In this document: in pieces, positions 2,543 to 14,726 of the stretch
Layout: the number at the start of each line of letters is the position of its first letter
How positions within the stretch are numbered: the stretch's first letter is position 1
Origin: Thermoplasmata archaeon
Lineage (GTDB): Archaea > Thermoplasmatota > Thermoplasmata > Lutacidiplasmatales > UBA184
DNA length: 64,000 bases
Reading direction: 5' to 3'
Assembly: GCA_028864975.1 (NCBI GenBank)
Contig: JAGWLG010000004.1
Coordinates: 32,001 to 96,000, forward strand
Notes under the pieces: model-generated
Told to the model about the DNA's origin: nothing
Seen by the model: only the letters and a program-made list of their open reading frames with translations
Database searches by the model: none
Position numbers and translations under genes: made by a program

Positions 2543-2882
2543 TAGGACGCTTGCACCCCGTCGAGGTCTCCGACCTTTCACCTCTGCCAGTGGACCGCCC
2601 AAGATGCGGAGGGACCGAAGCACACCACGACGGGCCTGACGCGGAAGTCCACCGGAGGCCAGGACCGAGGAACGGGAGCTTCGTCGCGCTGGCCATGGGG
2701 AACCAGGCGGAGCACTCGCTCCCGACATTCTCGGCGAGCTCGGGTCCTCGAGGAGAAGTTGAGAGGCCGTGGTTCATTGCCCCCAAACGAGAGGTCATTC
2801 GTGTCGGGGGGCAAGACGCATTCCTCCCTCCTCAGCGCCCCTCGAAGCGAAGATTGAAGTCAAGCCGTACGGTGTCGACCCT

Positions 2883-5342
2883 GTGGCGGTTCCACGGCAA
2901 GCGGTTCTCGGTCGTATACTCTCTCTGACCTTGGTACCCCTGCTCGTCCTCGGACTAGGGCTGGCGGCGGTCACCGCGACCAGCGGGCCACCCAAGAGTG
3001 GCTGCGTACTCCCCTCGCATTGCTCGTCGGAGCCATCCCGTGCCGGTGGCCGTCCTACGGGTTCGGCGCGAGCGCTTGCGCCTTCGGCCCCAGGACTGTC
3101 CATCCCGTCGGTGCAGGGGCCACCGCACGGTCGTGGCTCGACGGGCGACCCCCCAGGTCGCGCGAACGAAGCGGGGCCCTCAAGCGACCACGGGGTCGTC
3201 CTACCAGGCCCCGAGGTCGTCACCCTTACAGGTCCTCAACAGGTCTCCACCTGGGGCGCCACCGATACCTACGTCGCGGTGCTGTCGGGGCCTCTGGTGC
3301 CTTCGAACTATACGTGGGACATCGACGAGCAGGCCGCCGGCGGCGTTGTCGAGCACACCACGGTGCCTACCGTCGATGTCACTTGGACCGCGGCGATGTG
3401 CTACAGCGGCGTCGTCAACACCATCTTCGCCGTGAGCGTCACCGTCTCGTTCCAATCGACCCCTCTGATCCCCAACCCTCGAGGGGGTTACGACTCTATG
3501 ACCGCAGAGCTCGTTGTCTACCCACCCACGTCCCCCCCAACGGGTTGCTACTCCTCTCCCCCTCCCTATCTCCTGTACAGCCTGTCAAGTTGGGGGGATC
3601 GGCCGCAGGTCTTCCTCCACCCGACCTCGTACGCTAACACGACGAGTCATGTATGGCTCAACACGACCGCGGGAGCCACGGGGGCCTCCGTGACCGTCTG
3701 CGATCTTCCCGTGACCACATGCAGCCCCTCGTACACAAACATGACGGGCAACTTCGACTTCCTCGCGCAGTTCTACCCTAGTTCCGGGTGCTGTGGCTTT
3801 GGCCCGGGATGGACCGGCATCACGGTCGTCATGGACTACGTTCCCTTCCAGTCGGTGGGGAAGTTCATGGTGCAGTTCTTCAATCTTGCCGACGGTCTCC
3901 AGGCCTCAGCCACCGCCTCTCCACTGCAGGGGGTCCTTCCTCTCCCCGTATCGTTCGGGTCCAGCGCTCGGGGCGGTCTCCCGCCCTACACGTTCAACTG
4001 GACCTTTGGTGACGGGACGTCCGTCTACTTCACGCAGAATCCTAACCACACGTTCACCTCGACAGGTACCTTCCATGCGTGGCTCAACGTGACCGATTCG
4101 CTGGGTTTCTCCGTGAGCGTTGCGCTTCCCGCGATCGCGGTGGTCAGTCCCCTGAGCGCGGTCATCGTCCCTAGCTCCGTCGCCGGCCCCCCGCCCTTCA
4201 CAGTGAGCTTGGCAGCTTCCCTATCCGGAGGTCTGCCCCCCTTCCAGTACTCATGGGACCTGGGCAACGGTGCGACGGCGAGCGGGCCCTCGACGGCGGC
4301 CACCTACGTCCAACCGGGCGCCTACCTGGTCTCGCTCACGGTCTCCGATGCCCTCAGCGAGCTTGCCACGACCTACGCGATCCTGCGGGCCGACGGGGCA
4401 CCGACGTTCCCGGTGACATTCCAGGAGTCTGGACTTCCCTCGGGCGTCCAGTGGGGCGTGGCCGTAGATGGGGACCTGCCCCTGAGCACGGGCCCTTCGC
4501 TCACCGTGGACCTCCCCAATGCGACCTATGTCTACGGAGCCGTGGCAGCCGCGCGCTATCTCGCCCAGCCCGCCACGGGCATCTTCACCGTTCAGGGCAG
4601 CCCGGTCTCGGTTCACGTCTCCTTCGTGGCCTCTCCTGCGCCCTCGTTCCTCCTCGATTTTCTGTCGTCGGACCTACCACGAGGAGTCAACTGGACGGTG
4701 CACTTGGCCCACGGTGGTGTGCCCCTCGCGTCGGGAGGATGCGCCTGCGCGTCCGTCCCCTTCGTGGTCCCGAACGGAGCCTACGGTTTCACGGTTGGGG
4801 GCGCGTCGGGCTTCAAGTCCAACCGGACCGTGGGGAACGCTACGATTCAGGGAGCTGCCGACTTTGTCCTGATCGGCTGGGACCGTCTCTATCCCGTCGC
4901 ATTCAACGAAACGGGACTTCCGGCCTCCACGAATTGGTCGGTCCAGCTGGGTGGGGACAGGTGGAGCACGACCACGAACAGCGTGACCTTTGAGGCCGTC
5001 AATGGGACGTACAACTTCACGGTCCTCGGACCCCAGGGGTACCGAGCCTCTCCAGGTTCGGGCAGTCTGTCCGTACATGGGCCCGCCTTGGTTTCGATCA
5101 CTTTCTCCTCGTCGTCCTCAACCTGGGCCGGCTTAGCGGGCTTCTTCGCCCGCAATCCGTGGCTGGTGGTGGGCGCGGGCGCAAGTACGATCGCAGTCGC
5201 GCTGGGGATATGGCGATGGAAGAAGCCCCCATCCCGCCGGAGGACCGCGGCCACGAAGGGCGAGCCGTCGTCGGAGCCCTCGGGAGGATCTGGTCCATCC
5301 GATCCTAACTCTAGCACCCACGGCGGCACCAGCGTGAGCTGA
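2883..5342 (+). CDS. Membrane-anchored cell-surface protein with PKD domains and thermopsin-associated beta repeats
   Basis: Signal-like hydrophobic N-terminus; two PKD motifs (FNWTFGDG, YSWDLGNG); three repeats of type VTFQESGLPSGVQWGV; C-terminal TM plus basic residues. Start moved to GTG 2883 (track 2769). Confidence 0.8.
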   Translation: MAVPRQAVLGRILSLTLVPLLVLGLGLAAVTATSGPPKSGCVLPSHCSSEPSRAGGRPTGSARALAPSAPGLSIPSVQGPPHGRGSTGDPPGRANEAGPSSDHGVVLPGPEVVTLTGPQQVSTWGATDTYVAVLSGPLVPSNYTWDIDEQAAGGVVEHTTVPTVDVTWTAAMCYSGVVNTIFAVSVTVSFQSTPLIPNPRGGYDSMTAELVVYPPTSPPTGCYSSPPPYLLYSLSSWGDRPQVFLHPTSYANTTSHVWLNTTAGATGASVTVCDLPVTTCSPSYTNMTGNFDFLAQFYPSSGCCGFGPGWTGITVVMDYVPFQSVGKFMVQFFNLADGLQASATASPLQGVLPLPVSFGSSARGGLPPYTFNWTFGDGTSVYFTQNPNHTFTSTGTFHAWLNVTDSLGFSVSVALPAIAVVSPLSAVIVPSSVAGPPPFTVSLAASLSGGLPPFQYSWDLGNGATASGPSTAATYVQPGAYLVSLTVSDALSELATTYAILRADGAPTFPVTFQESGLPSGVQWGVAVDGDLPLSTGPSLTVDLPNATYVYGAVAAARYLAQPATGIFTVQGSPVSVHVSFVASPAPSFLLDFLSSDLPRGVNWTVHLAHGGVPLASGGCACASVPFVVPNGAYGFTVGGASGFKSNRTVGNATIQGAADFVLIGWDRLYPVAFNETGLPASTNWSVQLGGDRWSTTTNSVTFEAVNGTYNFTVLGPQGYRASPGSGSLSVHGPALVSITFSSSSSTWAGLAGFFARNPWLVVGAGASTIAVALGIWRWKKPPSRRRTAATKGEPSSEPSGGSGPSDPNSSTHGGTSVS

Positions 5343-5752: not shown

Positions 5753-6193
5753 ATGTCACCCCCGCCACCCTCCGGCACCTTCACGGCCGGCAAGCTCCGG
5801 CACCTTCGGCAGCGACGGCGCTGGTCCGACCGGTACTACAAGCGTCGGGAGCTCCATCTCAAGGAGCGGTCGGACCCTCTGGAGGGCGCTCCCCAGGGCC
5901 GAGGGATCGTGATCGAGAAGGTCGGGGTCGAGGCGAAGCAGCCCAACTCGGCCATCCGCAAGTGCGTCAAGGTCCAGCTCATCAAGAACGGCCGTCAGGT
6001 GACAGCCTTCGCGGTGGGGGACGGCGCGATCAACTTCATCGACGAACACGACGAGGTCCTCGTCGAGGGCATCGGAGGGCGCATGGGAAGGTCCTACGGC
6101 GATATCCCCGGGGTCCGCTACAAGGTCATCAAGGTCAACAACGTCTCGTTGGACGAGCTCGTTCGGGGCCGTAAGGAGAAGCCGCAGCGATGA
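5753..6193 (+). CDS. rps12: 30S ribosomal protein uS12 (archaeal type)
   Basis: [19 protein letters not shown] and [10 protein letters not shown]. Confidence 0.98.
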
Positions 6194-6933
6194 GCCCGAA
6201 AGAGGAGAAGACCGTGGCCGCCGCCCCCGCCGCGGCGGTGGCCGCCGTCCTGCCCCCTGCCGCGCCCTCCACCTCCGCGGGGGCCCCGGCCGCTTCGGTC
6301 TCGGTGGTCGGCGACGAGGAGGGTACCCTCCCCACGAGCGCGCCGGCCCCTCCGCCCCGACCCCGGCTCCCGTTCCCGCCGCTCTTCGGACGGTTCAGCT
6401 TCGAGGGCGTCGAGGTGCACGACCCCGGGCTCAAGAACTACCTCTTCCTGGACCCGGTCTACCTCCCGCACTCAGAAGGTCGGCTCGCCAACCACCCCTT
6501 CTCGAAGACCCGGATGCATGTGGTCGAGCGCCTGGCGAACGACCTGATGAAGACCGGGAAGTTCACGGGGAAGAAGGCGAAGGCCCTGAAGACCGTACGG
6601 GACGCCCTGACGGTCCTGGCGAAGCAGCCCGGGGCGAACCCGCTCCAGCTCCTGGTCGATGCGATCGAGAACTCGGCCCCACGGGAGGAGGTCACCCGTC
6701 TCCAGTTCGGAGGCATCTCCGTGCCGCGGGCCGTCGATTCTGCTCCTGCCCGCCGCTTGAACGTCGCGCTGCGCAACCTCGCCCAAGGGGCGATCCAGGC
6801 CACCAAGGGCCCCGGGGTCGCGATCTCGGACGCCCTCGCGAAGGAGATCCTCCTCGCCTCCAAGGGGGACGCGGGGTCCTTCGCCGTGGCGCGCAAGGAA
6901 GAGGTCGAGCGCGTCGCGCAGTCGGCCCGCTGA
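6190..6933 (+). CDS. rps7: 30S ribosomal protein uS7 with Ala/Pro-rich N-terminal extension
   Basis: [18 protein letters not shown] and [13 protein letters not shown]; ATGA overlap with rps12. Confidence 0.97.
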
Positions 6934-6982
6934 GCACACCTCGGGCGCCCGGTCGGACAGAGAGAGCAGGTAGGAAGGCACC

Positions 6983-9187
6983 ATGGGACACATCCGCGCG
7001 GAGCTTGCGAAGGCCATTCCCGAGATGATGCACGTCCGGGAGAACATCCGGAACATCGGGATCGTGGCGCACATCCACCACGGGAAGACCACCCTCTCGG
7101 ACAACCTGCTCGCCGCGGCGGGAATGATCAGCGAGGAGCTCGCGGGGAAGCAGCTCTACCTCAACTTCGACGAGCAGGAACAGGCGAGATTGCTCACCAT
7201 CAACAACGCGGACGTGACCATCGTCCACGCCTACGAGGGGAAGAGCTACCTCATCAACCTCATCGACACGCCCGGGCACGTCGACTTCGGCGGGGACGTG
7301 ACGCGCGCCATGAGGGCGGTGGACGGCGCCGTGGTGCTGGTCTGCGCCGTCGAGGGCGTCATGGCCCAGACCGAGACCGTGCTGCGGCAGGCGCTGCGCG
7401 AGAAGGTGAAGCCCGTCCTCTTCATCAACAAGGTCGACCGAGCGATCCGGGAGCTCAAGCTGACCCCGGAGGCGATGCAGAAGCGCTTCGTCAACATCAT
7501 CACGGAGGTCAACGAGCTCATCCGAAAGATGGCCCCCGAGGAGTTCATCGAGAAGTGGAGCGTCAAGGTCGAGAACGGCACCGTCGCCTTCGGTAGCGGG
7601 CACGACAACTGGGCGATCAGCTTCCCCTACATGCGGCGCACAGGGATCAAGTTCGCCGATATCGTGCGGCTGGTCAACGAGGGGAAGGGCAAGGAGCTCG
7701 CCCAGAAGGCCCTCATCAACGACGTCGTCTTCGACATGGTGGTCAAGCACCTCCCGAGCCCGCTGGAGGCGCAGCGTTACCGCATCCCCCACATCTGGAA
7801 GGGACCGCTCGACAGCCGTGTCGGGAAGGCCGAGGTCACCTGCGACCCGGACGGCCCGCTCGCCTTCATGATCACCGACATCACCATGGACCCGAACGCG
7901 GGGGAGATCGCGACCGGGCGGGTCTTCTCCGGCCGCGTCGCCAAGGGGACCGAGGTCTCCATCGTCGGGACCAAGTCCAAGAACCGCATCCAGCACGTCT
8001 CCCTGTTCATGGGCCCCGAGCGGCTCATGGTCGAGGAAGTGACGGCGGGGAACATCGCGGCCGTCATCGGGCTCACCGACGCGTTCGTCGGCTCGACGAT
8101 CTCGACCGACCCCGAGATGGTGGAGTTCGAGGAGATCCGCCACGTGAGCGAGCCGGTGGTCACGGTGGCCATCGAGCCCAAGCACATGGGCGACCTTCCG
8201 AAGCTGATCGAGGTCATGCGCAAGGTGGCGAAGGAGGACGCTTCGCTGAGGGTCGAGATCAACAACGAGACCGGCGAGCACCTGCTCTCGGGGATGGGCG
8301 AGCTCCACCTCGAGATCACGCAGTACCGGATTGTCAACGACTACCACGTCGAGATCACGGCCTCGCCTCCGATCGTCGTCTACCGCGAGACCGTGGGCGG
8401 CAAGAGCCCCCAGGCCTTCGAGGGGAAGTCTCCGAACAAGCACAACCGGTTCTACATCGAGACCGAGCCGCTCCCCGCGGCCGTGGTCAAGGCCATCCAG
8501 GAGGGCGAGATCCACCAGGGGAAGTCCTTCAAGGACATCAAGACGGTCGTCCAGAAGCTGGTCGACCTCGGCATCGACCGCGACGAGGCGAAGGGGATCA
8601 CCGCCGTGGAGGACACCAACATCCTCTTCGACGCGACCAAGGGGATCCAGTACCTCCACGAGACCATGGACCTGGTCATCGACGCCTTCAAGGAGGCGAT
8701 GGGACGGGGACCGCTCGCGGCCGAGAAGTCCCGGGGCCTCCTGGTCCGCTTGGTGGATGCAAAGCTCCACGAGGACTCGATCCACCGGGGTCCGGGCCAG
8801 ACCATCCCTGCCGTCCGCTCCTCGATCTACGGGTCGATGTGCACGGCCGGACGCGTGCTCATGGAGCCGCTCTCGAAGGTCACCGTGAACGTGCCCCAGG
8901 AGGTGCTCGCCGGCGCCACGCGCGAGATGCAGCGCCGACGGGGAGAGATCCTGGACATGACCCAGGTGGGGGACCTGAACACGATCGTCGCCAAGGTCCC
9001 CGTCGCAGAGCTCTTCGGGTTCGCGAGCGACCTGCGCAGCGCGACCGCGGGCAAGGTCCTCTGGAGCACGGAGACCATGGGGTACGACCGGCTCCCCCGC
9101 GAGCTTCAGGACAAGATCGTCGGTGAGGTCCGCACGCGACGCGGGCTCAAGCCCGAGCCGTACGACGCCTCGTACTACGCCGGGTGA
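6983..9187 (+). CDS. fusA: Elongation factor 2 (aEF-2)
   Basis: DTPGHVDF, NKVD, GMGELHLE, diphthamide loop LHEDSIHRG; variant G1 AHIHHGKT and switch I RLLTI. Confidence 0.98.
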   Translation: MGHIRAELAKAIPEMMHVRENIRNIGIVAHIHHGKTTLSDNLLAAAGMISEELAGKQLYLNFDEQEQARLLTINNADVTIVHAYEGKSYLINLIDTPGHVDFGGDVTRAMRAVDGAVVLVCAVEGVMAQTETVLRQALREKVKPVLFINKVDRAIRELKLTPEAMQKRFVNIITEVNELIRKMAPEEFIEKWSVKVENGTVAFGSGHDNWAISFPYMRRTGIKFADIVRLVNEGKGKELAQKALINDVVFDMVVKHLPSPLEAQRYRIPHIWKGPLDSRVGKAEVTCDPDGPLAFMITDITMDPNAGEIATGRVFSGRVAKGTEVSIVGTKSKNRIQHVSLFMGPERLMVEEVTAGNIAAVIGLTDAFVGSTISTDPEMVEFEEIRHVSEPVVTVAIEPKHMGDLPKLIEVMRKVAKEDASLRVEINNETGEHLLSGMGELHLEITQYRIVNDYHVEITASPPIVVYRETVGGKSPQAFEGKSPNKHNRFYIETEPLPAAVVKAIQEGEIHQGKSFKDIKTVVQKLVDLGIDRDEAKGITAVEDTNILFDATKGIQYLHETMDLVIDAFKEAMGRGPLAAEKSRGLLVRLVDAKLHEDSIHRGPGQTIPAVRSSIYGSMCTAGRVLMEPLSKVTVNVPQEVLAGATREMQRRRGEILDMTQVGDLNTIVAKVPVAELFGFASDLRSATAGKVLWSTETMGYDRLPRELQDKIVGEVRTRRGLKPEPYDASYYAG

Positions 9188-9376
9188 GGTCCTCCCCGCG
9201 CTTGAATCGGGGGCTTCCTCCGGCCGTAGGGTTCTCGCCCCCACGGCCGGGGGCGGCTCGTGCTCCCTCGGACCGGCTGGTCGCTCCAAGGCGGTCGCGC
9301 GACTCTGGCGAGAAGAGGCGGGGGTCGGCCGTAGGACGCTGGGCTGTCTCCTTGGAGGCTCCGCCGAACGGCATGC

Positions 9377-9799
9377 TCAGGCGGCGCCGGAACTCGGGGG
9401 CATGTGCGTCCGCTCGGTGACCCAGTCGAACACCCTTTCCGCCCGGAGCACCATCTCTCTTGCGGTCCTCTCCTCCACCAAGGCGGGCCCGTACTGCACG
9501 GCGGTCTTCCGTTCCAAGACGTACTCGGCCTGTCTCCGAATGGCATCCAGCCCTGGTTCCGCCAGCCCTCGAAGGAGACGCAGCACGTCCAGGTGGTTCT
9601 GGCTGGTCGACTTCACCCCCAGCGACCAGCAGGTGAAGGCGTCCAGGGCGGAGATGACCGTTTGCACCGCCTCGATCGCCGCGCTGTTGAACATCCGGGC
9701 TTCGACGCAGGACTTCATGGTCCTCGAGGCCTCCTCCGCCCGCCGGAAGAAGACCACGAACTTCTCCCGAGGCAGGGGAGCGACCGAGGTCTCTTTCAC
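9377..9799 (-). CDS. HEPN-domain protein (module 1)
   Basis: Helical protein AAIEAVQTVISALDA...NHLDV...KTAVQY; GTG start overlaps the upstream MNT stop (GTGA). Confidence 0.75.
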   Translation of the reverse strand: MKETSVAPLPREKFVVFFRRAEEASRTMKSCVEARMFNSAAIEAVQTVISALDAFTCWSLGVKSTSQNHLDVLRLLRGLAEPGLDAIRRQAEYVLERKTAVQYGPALVEERTAREMVLRAERVFDWVTERTHMPPSSGAA

Positions 9800-10395
9800 C
9801 GTTCCCTCGCTTCGAGCGCCACGATGCCCTCGCTCCGGACCCGGTCTAGGAAGGAAGGGCTCTTGGTGGACCGAACCTCCTCGGCGCTGTAGACCAGGGG
9901 AGAGAGGGTCGTGCCGTACCGGACCGCGACCCTGTCGAACAGGACATGAAGGGCCTCGCGCACCGCTCCCTTGTCCCACTCGGTGGGAACCTCGACGAAC
10001 AGGTCCAGGTCGCTGTTGGACCGTTCCTTTCCCCTGGCGACGGAGCCGAAGATCGTGGCCCGCCGCGCCGGCGTTCCTTCGAGGGCTTTGGCGATATCGG
10101 ACCGGATGGCGTCCATCAGCCCTCGCTCCACGCCCAACATCTCCTTCAACGCACGGTACAGGACATGCTGCCGCTCGACCCTCCAAAGATGCACGGGGCC
10201 CACGACCCTTCTGCGGGCCATCCCCTGCCGCTCTAGCTCCAAGAGGACCGCTCGGGCCTGGGAGGGCGAGAGCCTCGCAACACGCGCCGCCTCTCGCCCC
10301 GTGAATTCGCGGTCCTCGAGAAGGACCAAGGCCCGGAAGGTACGGAGCGTAGCCACGCCGTTCAGGATGTCGTCGAGCGGGGTGTGCAAGTTCAT
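9796..10395 (-). CDS. wHTH-minimal nucleotidyltransferase (MNT) fusion (module 1)
   Basis: N-terminal HTH (FTGREAARVARLSPSQARAVLLELERQG); GS-x10-DxD motif FGSVARGKERSNSDLD. Confidence 0.85.
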   Translation of the reverse strand: MNLHTPLDDILNGVATLRTFRALVLLEDREFTGREAARVARLSPSQARAVLLELERQGMARRRVVGPVHLWRVERQHVLYRALKEMLGVERGLMDAIRSDIAKALEGTPARRATIFGSVARGKERSNSDLDLFVEVPTEWDKGAVREALHVLFDRVAVRYGTTLSPLVYSAEEVRSTKSPSFLDRVRSEGIVALEARER

Positions 10396-10413
10396 CGTAC
10401 TAGAACTAGTACG
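10396..10413. promoter_or_regulatory. Palindromic operator candidate
   Basis: Perfect inverted repeat CGTACTAG-AA-CTAGTACG between the TATA box and the MNT ATG. Confidence 0.6.
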
Positions 10414-10420
10414 CTCGTTC

Positions 10421-10428
10421 TTATTAAA
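10421..10428 (-). promoter_or_regulatory. TATA box of MNT-HEPN module 1
   Basis: TTTAATAA on the minus strand about 26 nt before the ATG (leaderless spacing). Confidence 0.6.
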
Positions 10429-10623
10429 GTCCTCTTTGCGGGGTCGGCGGCTTGGTCGGGGGAACCTCCGTGGCCGGGGGATCCTCGGAGAGGTAGGGCT
10501 CCCCCGGGATAGAGGGAAGGGGGACCCAGGAGCTTCCTTGAGGAACGTGAGCTGGGGCCCCGACACCCTGAGCCGCCTCCCCGGGAGCGGTCCCCCCTCC
10601 GTCCCGGCGCCGCGTCGAGGAGG

Positions 10624-12342: not shown

Positions 12343-13092
12343 TTGCCCAGGTCCATCACGTACAGTGTCGTGGACTCGACCCAGGAGGTCGCCCTCCGTC
12401 TGGCCCGGGAAGGGGCCCCGCACGGGACCTCGGTCTCGGCGGAGACGCAGCTCCTGGGGCGCGGGCGCGAGGGGCGTGCCTGGGCCTCGCCCAAGGGAGG
12501 GCTCTACGCCTCCGTCGTGCTCCGCCCGGAGGCCTCCGCCTTCCCCTTGCTCTCGCTCTCCGCAGGGCTCGAGCTGCGGGAGCTCCTCGCCGAGCGTGCG
12601 CCCAAGGCCAAGGTCATGATCAAGTGGCCGAACGATCTGCTGCTCGTTCCCCGGGACGCTCCGGGGTCGGCCCGCAAGGTCGGTGGGGTGCTGACGGACA
12701 TCATCACCCGTCCCGGGATCACCACCGTCGCGGTCGTCGGGGTGGGGCTGAACGTGGACGTCGCCGTGTCCGACCTCCCCCCCGATCTCCAAGGACAGGT
12801 GGCGTCGCTGCGGGAGTTCACTCCCGGGCCCGTCTCGGTCCGAGACCTGCAGGAGCCCGTGCTCCATGCGGTGGTCCGAGCGTGCCAACGCGTCTCGACC
12901 TCGGAGGGTCGTGCGAGCCTGCCTCAGGCCGTTGCGAAGCACCTCTTCGGGGTGGGGAGCCCGGTCGCGCTCGAAGGGGCCCGAGGGACCTTCCGGGGCG
13001 TGGGCCCCGGTGGCGAGGCGCTCGTCGAGCCCGAGGGCGGGGGCCCGCCGCGCGCGCTGCATGCCGGCGAGCTCAAGATCGAGGTGCCATGA
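12343..13092 (+). CDS. birA: Biotin-protein ligase (no N-terminal HTH)
   Basis: GRGREGRAWASP, IKWPNDL, RKVGGVL, VGVGLNV. Confidence 0.93.
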   Translation: MPRSITYSVVDSTQEVALRLAREGAPHGTSVSAETQLLGRGREGRAWASPKGGLYASVVLRPEASAFPLLSLSAGLELRELLAERAPKAKVMIKWPNDLLLVPRDAPGSARKVGGVLTDIITRPGITTVAVVGVGLNVDVAVSDLPPDLQGQVASLREFTPGPVSVRDLQEPVLHAVVRACQRVSTSEGRASLPQAVAKHLFGVGSPVALEGARGTFRGVGPGGEALVEPEGGGPPRALHAGELKIEVP

Positions 13093-14726
13093 CGACCACG
13101 AGCCGTCCGCCCACGGGCTCCGACGGGGTCGGGAAGGGGGGCGCAGCGGCCCCGCCTGGTCCCTCTCGTTCCCACCGCCCCTCCCCGCGCGAAAGGTTCG
13201 CCCGAGAGAAGGCCCGTGTCCGAGAAGGGGCGGGGAAGGACCGACAGGAGAAGCTCCGCGCCCAGGGGAGGCTGGCAGCGCGCGAGCGGTTGGAGACCCT
13301 GTTCGACCCCGGGACCTTCGTCGAGATCGACCCGTTCGTCTCCCACCGCATCACTTCCTTCGGGCTCTCTGAGCGACGGATCCCGGGCGACGGGGTCGTC
13401 ACAGGATGGGGCAAGATCGAGGGGCGGGTCGTGGCGGCCTTCGCGCAGGACCCGACGGTCTTCGGCGGGGCGCTGGGGGAAGCGCACGCCAGCAAGATCG
13501 TGAAGATCATGGAGTTCGCGGCGAAGGTCGGAGCCCCGGTCGTAGGCCTGAACGACTCCGGGGGCGCGAGGATCCAGGAGGGGGTCGTCTCCCTCGGGGG
13601 CTACGGGGAGGTCTTCCACCGCAACGTGCTCTATTCCGGGGTCGTCCCCCAGGTCTCGGTCATCCTCGGAGCCTGCGCGGGGGGAGCGGTCTACTCCCCG
13701 GCCATGACGGACTTCATCATCATGGCCGAAGGGGCGAGCCACATGTTCATCACCGGACCGGACGTGATCCGCACGGTCACGGGCGAGGAGGTCACCCACG
13801 AACAACTGGGGGGAGCCCATACGCACGCGTCGAAGAGCGGCGTGGCCCACCTGGTCGCTCCGGGGGAGAAGGAGGCGCTCGCCCTCACTCGACGGCTCCT
13901 CTCGTACCTTCCGTCGAACAACCTCGAGGACCCGCCCTCGTCCCCGCCTCGCTCGCCTCCGCCCTCCGCTGCGGGAGAGCTCGACGCCCTCGTTCCCGCC
14001 GAGGCCGACCGGCCCTACGATATGCACGAGGTCATCGGGCGGGTCGTCGACCCCGAGAGCACGCTCGAGATCTTCCCGTCCTGGGCCCCGAACATGATCA
14101 CCGAGCTCGCCCGGCTCGACGGTCACCCGGTCGGGGTCGTCGCGAACCAGCCCCAGGTCCTCGCCGGTTGTCTCGACATCGAGGCCTCCGAGAAAGGTGC
14201 ACGCTTCGTTCGCACCTGCGACGCCTTCAACTTGCCGCTCTTGACCTTCGTGGACGTTCCGGGGTTCCTCCCCGGCACGCAGCAGGAGTACGGCGGGATC
14301 ATCCGTCACGGCGCGAAGCTCCTCTTCGCGTTCTCCGAGGCGACGGTCCCCAAGCTCACGGTGATCCCCCGCAAGGCCTACGGCGGGGCCTACGATGTCA
14401 TGTGCTCGAAGCACATCGGTGGGGACTACAACGTGGCCTGGCCGCAGGCGGAGATCGCGGTCATGGGCGCGGAGGGCGCGGTGAACATCCTCTTCCGCCG
14501 AGAGCTCGACAAAGCGCCGGAGGGGGAGCGCTCTTCCCTGCGCAAGACGCTCACCGACGAGTACGCGGCCGAGTTCCTCAACCCCTACCTTGCCGCCGAA
14601 CGGGGCTACCTCGACGACGTCATCGACCCGAGCGAGACCCGCAAGAGGCTCCTGGAGGCCTTCGAGGCGCTGCGGGGCAAACGGCAGGACCGTCCCCCGA
14701 AGAAGCACGGGAACATCCCGCTGTGA
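13089..14726 (+). CDS. Acyl-CoA carboxyltransferase beta subunit (PccB/MmdA/transcarboxylase 12S-like)
   Basis: DSGGARIQEG, GACAGGAVYSPAMTD, VDVPGFLPG, RKAYGGAY, KKHGNIPL; start reset to ATG 13089. Confidence 0.95.
   Translation: MTTTSRPPTGSDGVGKGGAAAPPGPSRSHRPSPRERFAREKARVREGAGKDRQEKLRAQGRLAARERLETLFDPGTFVEIDPFVSHRITSFGLSERRIPGDGVVTGWGKIEGRVVAAFAQDPTVFGGALGEAHASKIVKIMEFAAKVGAPVVGLNDSGGARIQEGVVSLGGYGEVFHRNVLYSGVVPQVSVILGACAGGAVYSPAMTDFIIMAEGASHMFITGPDVIRTVTGEEVTHEQLGGAHTHASKSGVAHLVAPGEKEALALTRRLLSYLPSNNLEDPPSSPPRSPPPSAAGELDALVPAEADRPYDMHEVIGRVVDPESTLEIFPSWAPNMITELARLDGHPVGVVANQPQVLAGCLDIEASEKGARFVRTCDAFNLPLLTFVDVPGFLPGTQQEYGGIIRHGAKLLFAFSEATVPKLTVIPRKAYGGAYDVMCSKHIGGDYNVAWPQAEIAVMGAEGAVNILFRRELDKAPEGERSSLRKTLTDEYAAEFLNPYLAAERGYLDDVIDPSETRKRLLEAFEALRGKRQDRPPKKHGNIPL

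Follow-up and report, generated by a model that had tools for sequence, protein, structure and literature searches.

The elongation factor 2 (EF-2) encoded in the window, the 64,000-nucleotide stretch of contig JAGWLG010000004.1 analyzed here from an archaeon of the order Lutacidiplasmatales, has histidine (His32) in place of the conserved P-loop aspartate and leucine (Leu70) in place of the switch-I glycine. It was deduced, with a probability of roughly 55%, that a whole set of GTPase-pocket residues was exchanged at the base of the order, that the pocket's monovalent-cation site was lost and that His32 substitutes for the Asp-plus-ion pair; the set is read from sequence comparison, and the mechanism is what we infer from it. 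The codons at 7067-7090 are GCG CAC ATC CAC CAC GGG AAG ACC (AHIHHGKT) and those at 7187-7201 are AGA TTG CTC ACC ATC (RLLTI), with both motifs and the codons CAC and TTG of residues 32 and 70 exactly as had been reported in the initial annotation of this DNA.

The rest of the protein is intact. With the curated aEF-2 equivalog TIGR00490 it gave a full-length match of 1112 bits (cut-off 738; residues 5-725 aligned to profile positions 2-720), and the Pfam domains GTP_EFTU, GTP_EFTU_D2, EFG_III, EFG_IV and EFG_C were all recognized. The closest solved structures were those of canonical archaeal EF-2s, namely 6q2d (943 bits), 5h7j (P. horikoshii) and 6u45 (M. nitroreducens), and the alignments to these were gap-poor, with mismatches exactly at the motif positions. 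Shared with the canonical proteins are the five domains, the Mg-binding Thr36 and Thr72, the DTPGH motif with His99, NKVD, the diphthamide loop HRGPGQ and the gene order uS12-uS7-EF-2, the two ribosomal protein genes lying directly upstream. Genes dph2, dph5 and dph6 of the diphthamide pathway were found in the same genome. The initial annotation had likewise described the remainder of the protein, including the diphthamide His, as intact and had placed the gene in the str cluster, and both descriptions are borne out. The sarcin-ricin loop of the genome, AGUACGAGAGGAAC, is canonical. Its exact sequence is present on two contigs of the bin (C1:2738-2751 and C105:2435-2448), which points to two copies or fragments of the 23S ribosomal RNA (rRNA) or to a stray rRNA contig in the metagenome-assembled genome (MAG).

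Active-site changes across Lutacidiplasmatales

To define the changed positions, 99 EF-2s were aligned and filtered for sites that show a conservation of 85% or more in Asp/Gly-type EF-2 and are changed in all members of the order. Six of the 734 positions passed: Asp32His, Asp61Asn, Gly70 to another residue (Leu in the window), Ile71Leu, Leu154Ala and Pro420Ala. Five of these fall within G-domain motifs, and Pro420Ala lies in domain III. The 51 Asp/Gly-type representatives showed no variation at Asp32, Asp61, Gly70 or Ile71. By alignment, Asp61 is presumably the switch-I Asp that holds a water on Mg2+ in EF-Tu (Asp50/51). Ile71 aligns with Ile70 of M. nitroreducens EF-2, which belongs to a hydrophobic cluster linking switch I, the catalytic His and domain III. 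The comparison indicates that the six-site set is fixed on the stem branch of Lutacidiplasmatales and that the GTPase pocket changed as a unit, adding Asp61, Ile71, Leu154 and Pro420 to the two sites named in the initial annotation.

The P-loop codon at EF-2 position 32 was then compared across 401 Thermoplasmata genomes. A His codon was present in all 59 genomes of the window's family and in all five from the two other families of the order (64 of 64), and Asp was found in every listed genome outside Lutacidiplasmatales. The family count includes three unpublished genomes (G120, G315 and G228), on which the claim does not depend. All of the 120 nearest database proteins combine AHIHHGKT with R-L-L-T-I, and the His-type matches include Ca. 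Lutacidiplasma silvani AcS3-62, UBA184 and UBA61. The paper on Lutacidiplasmatales describes them as an acid-soil group and makes no mention of elongation factors. Among 105 distinct EF-2 DNA sequences of the order, position 32 is His (CAC in 82, CAT in 23), position 61 is Asn (AAC in 90, AAT in 15), position 71 is Leu (six codons) and position 154 is Ala (four codons); position 70 is Leu in 96 (five codons), Gln in 4, Cys in 3 and Lys in 2. Since these residues are held through synonymous codon change, His32, Asn61, Leu71 and Ala154 are deduced to be under purifying selection.

The source genome, a MAG of 3.6 Mb and 89.6% completeness, contains a single full-length EF-2 match. Its other G-domain matches are only aIF5B and aEF-1A, both of which keep the P-loop Asp; aEF-1A, which sits on a separate contig, also keeps RGVTI. 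Exactly one EF-2 N-terminus was matched in 40 of 41 related genomes, including all 29 of high quality, the exception being 64% complete. The window EF-2 is the housekeeping, diphthamide-bearing translocase of a Lutacidiplasmatales archaeon, which agrees with its initial description as the main translocase, and no second, canonical EF-2 was found in the genome. Identity with the divergent archaeal paralogue aEF-2p of Asgard, Korarchaeota and Bathyarchaeota was ruled out by the single copy, the short branches and the intact diphthamide loop. Identity with Snu114/EFTUD2 was ruled out by the length of 734 residues without an extension, the archaeal genome and the best match to aEF-2.

The origin of the sequence in an incomplete MAG could suggest an artefact: the gene might contain errors from sequencing or assembly, be a pseudogene or be a specialized paralogue beside a canonical EF-2. 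For practical purposes this explanation is already refuted. The open reading frame (ORF) is intact and of full length, the same residues recur in more than 100 independent assemblies, and the relatives carry one EF-2 match per genome with the single exception given above. Sequencing error, which had been discounted from the two codon changes at the outset, is excluded by the recurrence of the same residues in the 120 nearest proteins, the 105 DNA sequences and the 64 genomes of the order.

Origins of His32 and its coupling to residue 70

A scan for AHIHHGKT codons in one genome per species also found EF-2s of this type in DPANN archaea, in agreement with the initial annotation. In these, switch I reads R-E-I/M-T-V (Nanopusillus acidilobi, Nanobsidianus, Nanoclepta), R-L-M-T-I (Woesearchaeota / Nanoarchaeia) or R-E-L-T-I (Aenigmatarchaeota), and over the whole scan the switch-I Gly was replaced in all 119 AHIHHGKT loci. 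The DPANN His types, represented by Nanopusillus acidilobi, Nanoclepta minutus, Woesearchaeota and Aenigmatarchaeota, share with the window EF-2 the P-loop, the loss of Gly70 and Asp61 and, in most cases, including Nanopusillaceae and Woesearchaeota, Leu154Ala. They differ from it in having Trp61, Glu or Leu at 70 and Ile, Met or Leu at 71, in keeping Pro420 and in forming a separate clade.

On the EF-2 tree, the Lutacidiplasmatales His-type clade (support 100) is sister to the Asp-type Thermoplasmata (joint support 99), which keep Asp and Gly at positions 32 and 70, and it stands apart from the DPANN His types. Monophyly of all His types was rejected by the approximately unbiased (AU) test on a 46-row subset of the EF-2 set from which five trait columns had been removed (delta lnL 108, p-AU 1.8e-7). 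Because the tree separates the His types and the AU test rejects a single His-type clade, the origin of His32 in Thermoplasmata is deduced to be independent and to have occurred in a vertically inherited gene. The EF-2 branches are short, with no sign of relaxation, and S7-EF2 synteny is kept. Transfer from DPANN into Lutacidiplasmatales was ruled out by the trees, the AU test and this retained synteny.

A 623-residue EF-2 (P0170) has AHIHHGKT together with RQMTI (Gln70) and keeps the equivalent of Asp61. It was placed in a clade of Asp/Gly-type EF-2s, apart from both other His-type clades, and is a possible third origin and intermediate state. Strict loss of Asp61 with His32 was rejected, since P0170 has His32 and Gln70 with Asp61.

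The switch-I Gly had been taken as near-invariant in the initial annotation and its replacement as one half of a paired, compensatory change. The first of these is wrong for the EF-2 family. EF-2s with Asp32 and with Gln, Lys, Arg or Ser at position 70 exist (RQMTI, RKITI, RRMTV, RSITI) and keep Asp61 and Leu154, and replacement of this Gly in EF-2s was also pointed out by Atkinson 2015. Of the pairing, one part stands: every His32 EF-2 seen lacks Gly70, and this in at least three independent lineages. The other part has to be modified, in that more sites are involved and residue 70 is not one specific compensating residue, because L, Q, K, C and E all occur there within the His type. The sequences further suggest that the coupling is one-way, with His32 implying non-Gly70 and the converse false, because non-Gly70 occurs in EF-2s retaining Asp32. 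Gly is one mutation from the Glu and Cys codons found at position 70, yet it was never seen with His32.

A search of a metagenome contig collection for His32 with R-G-I-T at EF-2 spacing (N{96,96} spacer) gave 12 matches, none of which was an archaeal EF-2. Two of these were Snu114-like and a few were single EF-Tu-like ORFs, which may be errors. EF-Tu-like ORFs with a P-loop His and RGITI kept were seen at L176:9123-10337 (-) and on L180 (GHLHHGKTS, GHIHHGKTT), the former with PNH instead of PGH in switch II; these variants may be real or may represent single-base errors.

Proposed mechanism and alternatives

In published work on eIF5B and aEF-1A, the P-loop Asp carboxylate, the switch-I Gly carbonyl and phosphate oxygens surround a monovalent cation. 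GMPPCP takes away one of the cation's ligands. In M. nitroreducens EF-2 (6u45), Asp31 and the carbonyl of Gly69 form a predicted, nascent cation site, and positions 32 and 70 of the window EF-2 correspond to these two protein ligands. Of the site as defined by Kuhle and Ficner 2014, the carboxylate is replaced by His32 and the Gly by Leu70; a backbone carbonyl remains at the latter position, so that the loss of this ligand is deduced from the lost Gly geometry. The canonical site would therefore no longer be able to form.

The imidazole of His32 would extend about one bond further than the Asp carboxylate. His32 is proposed to take over the job of the Asp-plus-cation pair, because the carboxylate, the Gly and the second switch-I Asp were lost while His99 and the sarcin-ricin loop were kept. 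Two options are considered. A protonated His32 could act on the alpha and gamma phosphates, or His32 could bond directly to the sarcin-ricin-loop phosphate that Asp reaches via a metal ion. With either option, His99-driven, ribosome-triggered GTP hydrolysis would proceed without that ion. For the P-loop Asp itself, published views are divided between an action through K+ and one through a bridging Mg2+ that reaches the sarcin-ricin loop; when EF-G is bound to the ribosome, its Asp positions a Mg2+ beside A2662 of this loop.

The pocket change is specific to EF-2, as aEF-1A and aIF5B of the same genome keep Asp. A cell-wide adaptation to cytoplasmic ions or pH is unlikely because these two factors are unchanged, and other acidophilic Thermoplasmata among the 401 genomes compared keep Asp as well. 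A co-change in the sarcin-ricin loop was considered and none was seen, the loop being canonical on both contigs. In its strongest form the proposal would make His-type EF-2 a ribosome-activated GTPase in which a side chain has replaced the bound ion, be it K+/Na+ or a bridging Mg2+. Protonated His32 would then serve as a built-in "finger" that touches the nucleotide phosphates or the sarcin-ricin-loop phosphate, the exchange would have taken place at least three times in archaeal translocases, and hydrolysis would depend on pH rather than on a cation. This extension is put forward tentatively, as possible but not probable. If true, it would be an example of the cation-to-residue transition that has been proposed for the evolution of P-loop nucleoside triphosphatases.

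Several points weigh against the loss of the cation site and its takeover by His32. On the ribosome, where the role of the cation is disputed, EF-Tu showed no response to K+, and cation binding could still be conceived of via backbone and phosphate oxygens. The variability of residue 70 could point to relaxed constraint and not to a new function. The one known relative with the same His, Snu114, is a very weak GTPase. The coupling of positions 32 and 70 is suggestive and not statistically decisive, because only about three independent origins are known. The group compared in the AU test was chosen with the first tree already in view.

Some of these points would also fit near-neutral remodeling, in which the Asp-bound cation was dispensable on the ribosome and drift plus compensation left the mechanism unchanged. 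A cation or water would still lie between the phosphates and backbone oxygens, and His32 would provide only a hydrogen bond or packing. The missing K+ stimulation of ribosome-bound EF-Tu is consistent with this, as are the many working Asp-type EF-2s without the switch-I Gly and the free variation of residue 70 within the His type. It was nevertheless considered unlikely. With the mutation Asp21Ala, EF-Tu loses about 1000-fold in ribosome-stimulated GTPase activity and is no longer stimulated by K+, and the P-loop Asp position is therefore not neutral. Furthermore, His32, Asn61, Leu71 and Ala154 are invariant over the 105 distinct sequences despite synonymous turnover, and the pattern of several changed sites has come about again in independent lineages.

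Snu114/EFTUD2, the spliceosomal EF-2 paralogue, is the only described member of the EF-2 family with a P-loop His (GHLHHGKT in human, H143 in yeast). As it binds GTP stably and hydrolyzes it so weakly, a similar pocket tuned for slow hydrolysis and long GTP holding might be tolerated or favored in slow-growing acid-soil archaea and DPANN symbionts, and the His-type lineages are indeed uncultured soil archaea and small symbionts. Unlike the window EF-2, Snu114 is eukaryotic, has about 1000 residues with an acidic N-terminal extension and is part of the U5 small nuclear ribonucleoprotein, and it keeps the equivalent of Asp61. With its switch-I Gly retained and no sarcin-ricin loop to activate it, it is not a close functional model. 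With the catalytic His99 and the sarcin-ricin loop intact in the window's genome, a sole translocase that must still turn over and no relaxation in the branch lengths, a slow pocket was judged to be decidedly unlikely.

Substitution of the same two residues has precedents outside archaeal EF-2. Bacterial EF-G2/EFGII (T. thermophilus EF-G-2) likewise lacks the P-loop Asp and the switch-I Gly and yet supports poly-Phe synthesis. It differs from the window EF-2 in occurring as a paralogue alongside a canonical EF-G, in having a P-loop Gly at the place of His32 and in lacking the catalytic switch-II His. In e/aIF2 gamma, Ala and Asn stand at the Asp and Gly positions, and no monovalent cation is bound; this factor differs in belonging to the EF1 branch and in being activated by the protein eIF5 rather than by the sarcin-ricin loop. 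The only exceptions at the P-loop Asp that are named in reviews are eIF2 gamma (Ala) and EFGII (Gly), and aEF-2 is not among the P-loop variants in the survey of translational GTPases by Atkinson 2015. No published description of a His-type archaeal EF-2 was found, the motif string being absent from the literature searched. New in this analysis are the list of six sites, the one-way nature of the coupling, the AU test, the comparison with Snu114 and the third lineage keeping Asp61.

Resistance to a natural inhibitor that binds the G-domain pocket or switch region of EF-2 was also considered. Convergent changes in an essential, drug-targeted protein of soil organisms might hint at it, by inference only. 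No documented contact of an EF-2 or EF-G inhibitor with the changed residues was established here, and the same changes are present in DPANN that live in quite other settings, namely groundwater and hot springs, which makes this explanation highly improbable.

The P-loop Asp is treated as a second catalytic residue of translational GTPases. Throughout Lutacidiplasmatales and, separately, in several DPANN groups, all protein synthesis depends on an EF-2 without it. The His-type EF-2s are thus a natural test of how translational GTPases fire, and offer a direct one of whether the cation is needed for translocation. The small partner set that recurs (61, 70, 71 and 154) tells which residues must move with the loss of Asp32 and supplies mutant sets for biochemistry in both directions. 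The automatic label "elongation factor EF-2" hides this active-site variant.

Feature coordinates and neighboring genes

Table 1. Features of the EF-2 region, in window coordinates
Feature	Position	Strand	Remarks
857-residue ORF	2769-5342	+	two PKD domains
uS12 gene	5753-6193	+	first of cluster; NF003254, 254 bits
uS7 gene	6190-6933	+	NF003106, 238 bits over residues 65-247
uS7 N-terminal extension	6190-6380	+	Pro/Ala-rich, ~64 residues
865-residue ORF	6692-9289	-	overlaps EF-2
EF-2 gene	6983-9187	+	734 residues; TIGR00490, 1112 bits; five EF-G/EF-2 Pfam domains
G1/P-loop AHIHHGKT	7067-7090	+	residues 29-36; His32 (CAC 7076-7078) for conserved Asp
Asn61, switch I	7163-7165	+	AAC; for Asp invariant in Asp-type EF-2
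G2/switch I RLLTI	7187-7201	+	residues 69-73; Leu70 (TTG 7190-7192) for Gly, Leu71 for Ile
G3/switch II DTPGH	7265-7279	+	residues 95-99; catalytic His99 intact
G4 NKVD, then R-A-I	7427-7447	+	NKVD residues 149-152; Ala154 (GCG 7442-7444) for conserved Leu
Ala420, domain III	8240-8242	+	GCT; for conserved Pro; order-specific
Diphthamide loop HRGPGQ	8783-8800	+	residues 601-606; His601; intact
393-residue ORF	9123-10304	+	overlaps EF-2
HEPN-domain and nucleotidyltransferase-domain ORFs	9377-10566	-	overlapping
Carboxyl-transferase domain protein	12624-14726	+	700 residues; PF01039, 647 bits

The ATG of uS7 overlaps the stop codon of uS12, and the N-terminal extension precedes the conserved core. 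Throughout the order, uS7 has an extension of 30-60 residues, rich in Pro/Ala in the window's family and in Lys/Glu in the other two families; uS7 of the class-level outgroup G034 has none. In the window, EF-2 is not followed by EF-1A and uS10. The ORFs with HEPN and nucleotidyltransferase domains converge on the end of the EF-2 gene and look like a HEPN/MNT toxin-antitoxin-type pair.

Upstream of uS12, the 857-residue ORF occupies the place of the RNA polymerase/NusA genes of many archaea. Besides the PKD domains it has many N-x-S/T sites and, at the C-terminus, a hydrophobic stretch, and its product is probably a surface protein. The long ORFs antisense to or overlapping EF-2 (865 and 393 residues) are Arg/Pro/Ser-rich, gave no family match and are most likely chance open frames in DNA of 68% G+C. 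Further downstream, the N-terminal ~210 residues of the carboxyl-transferase domain protein are without a family match.

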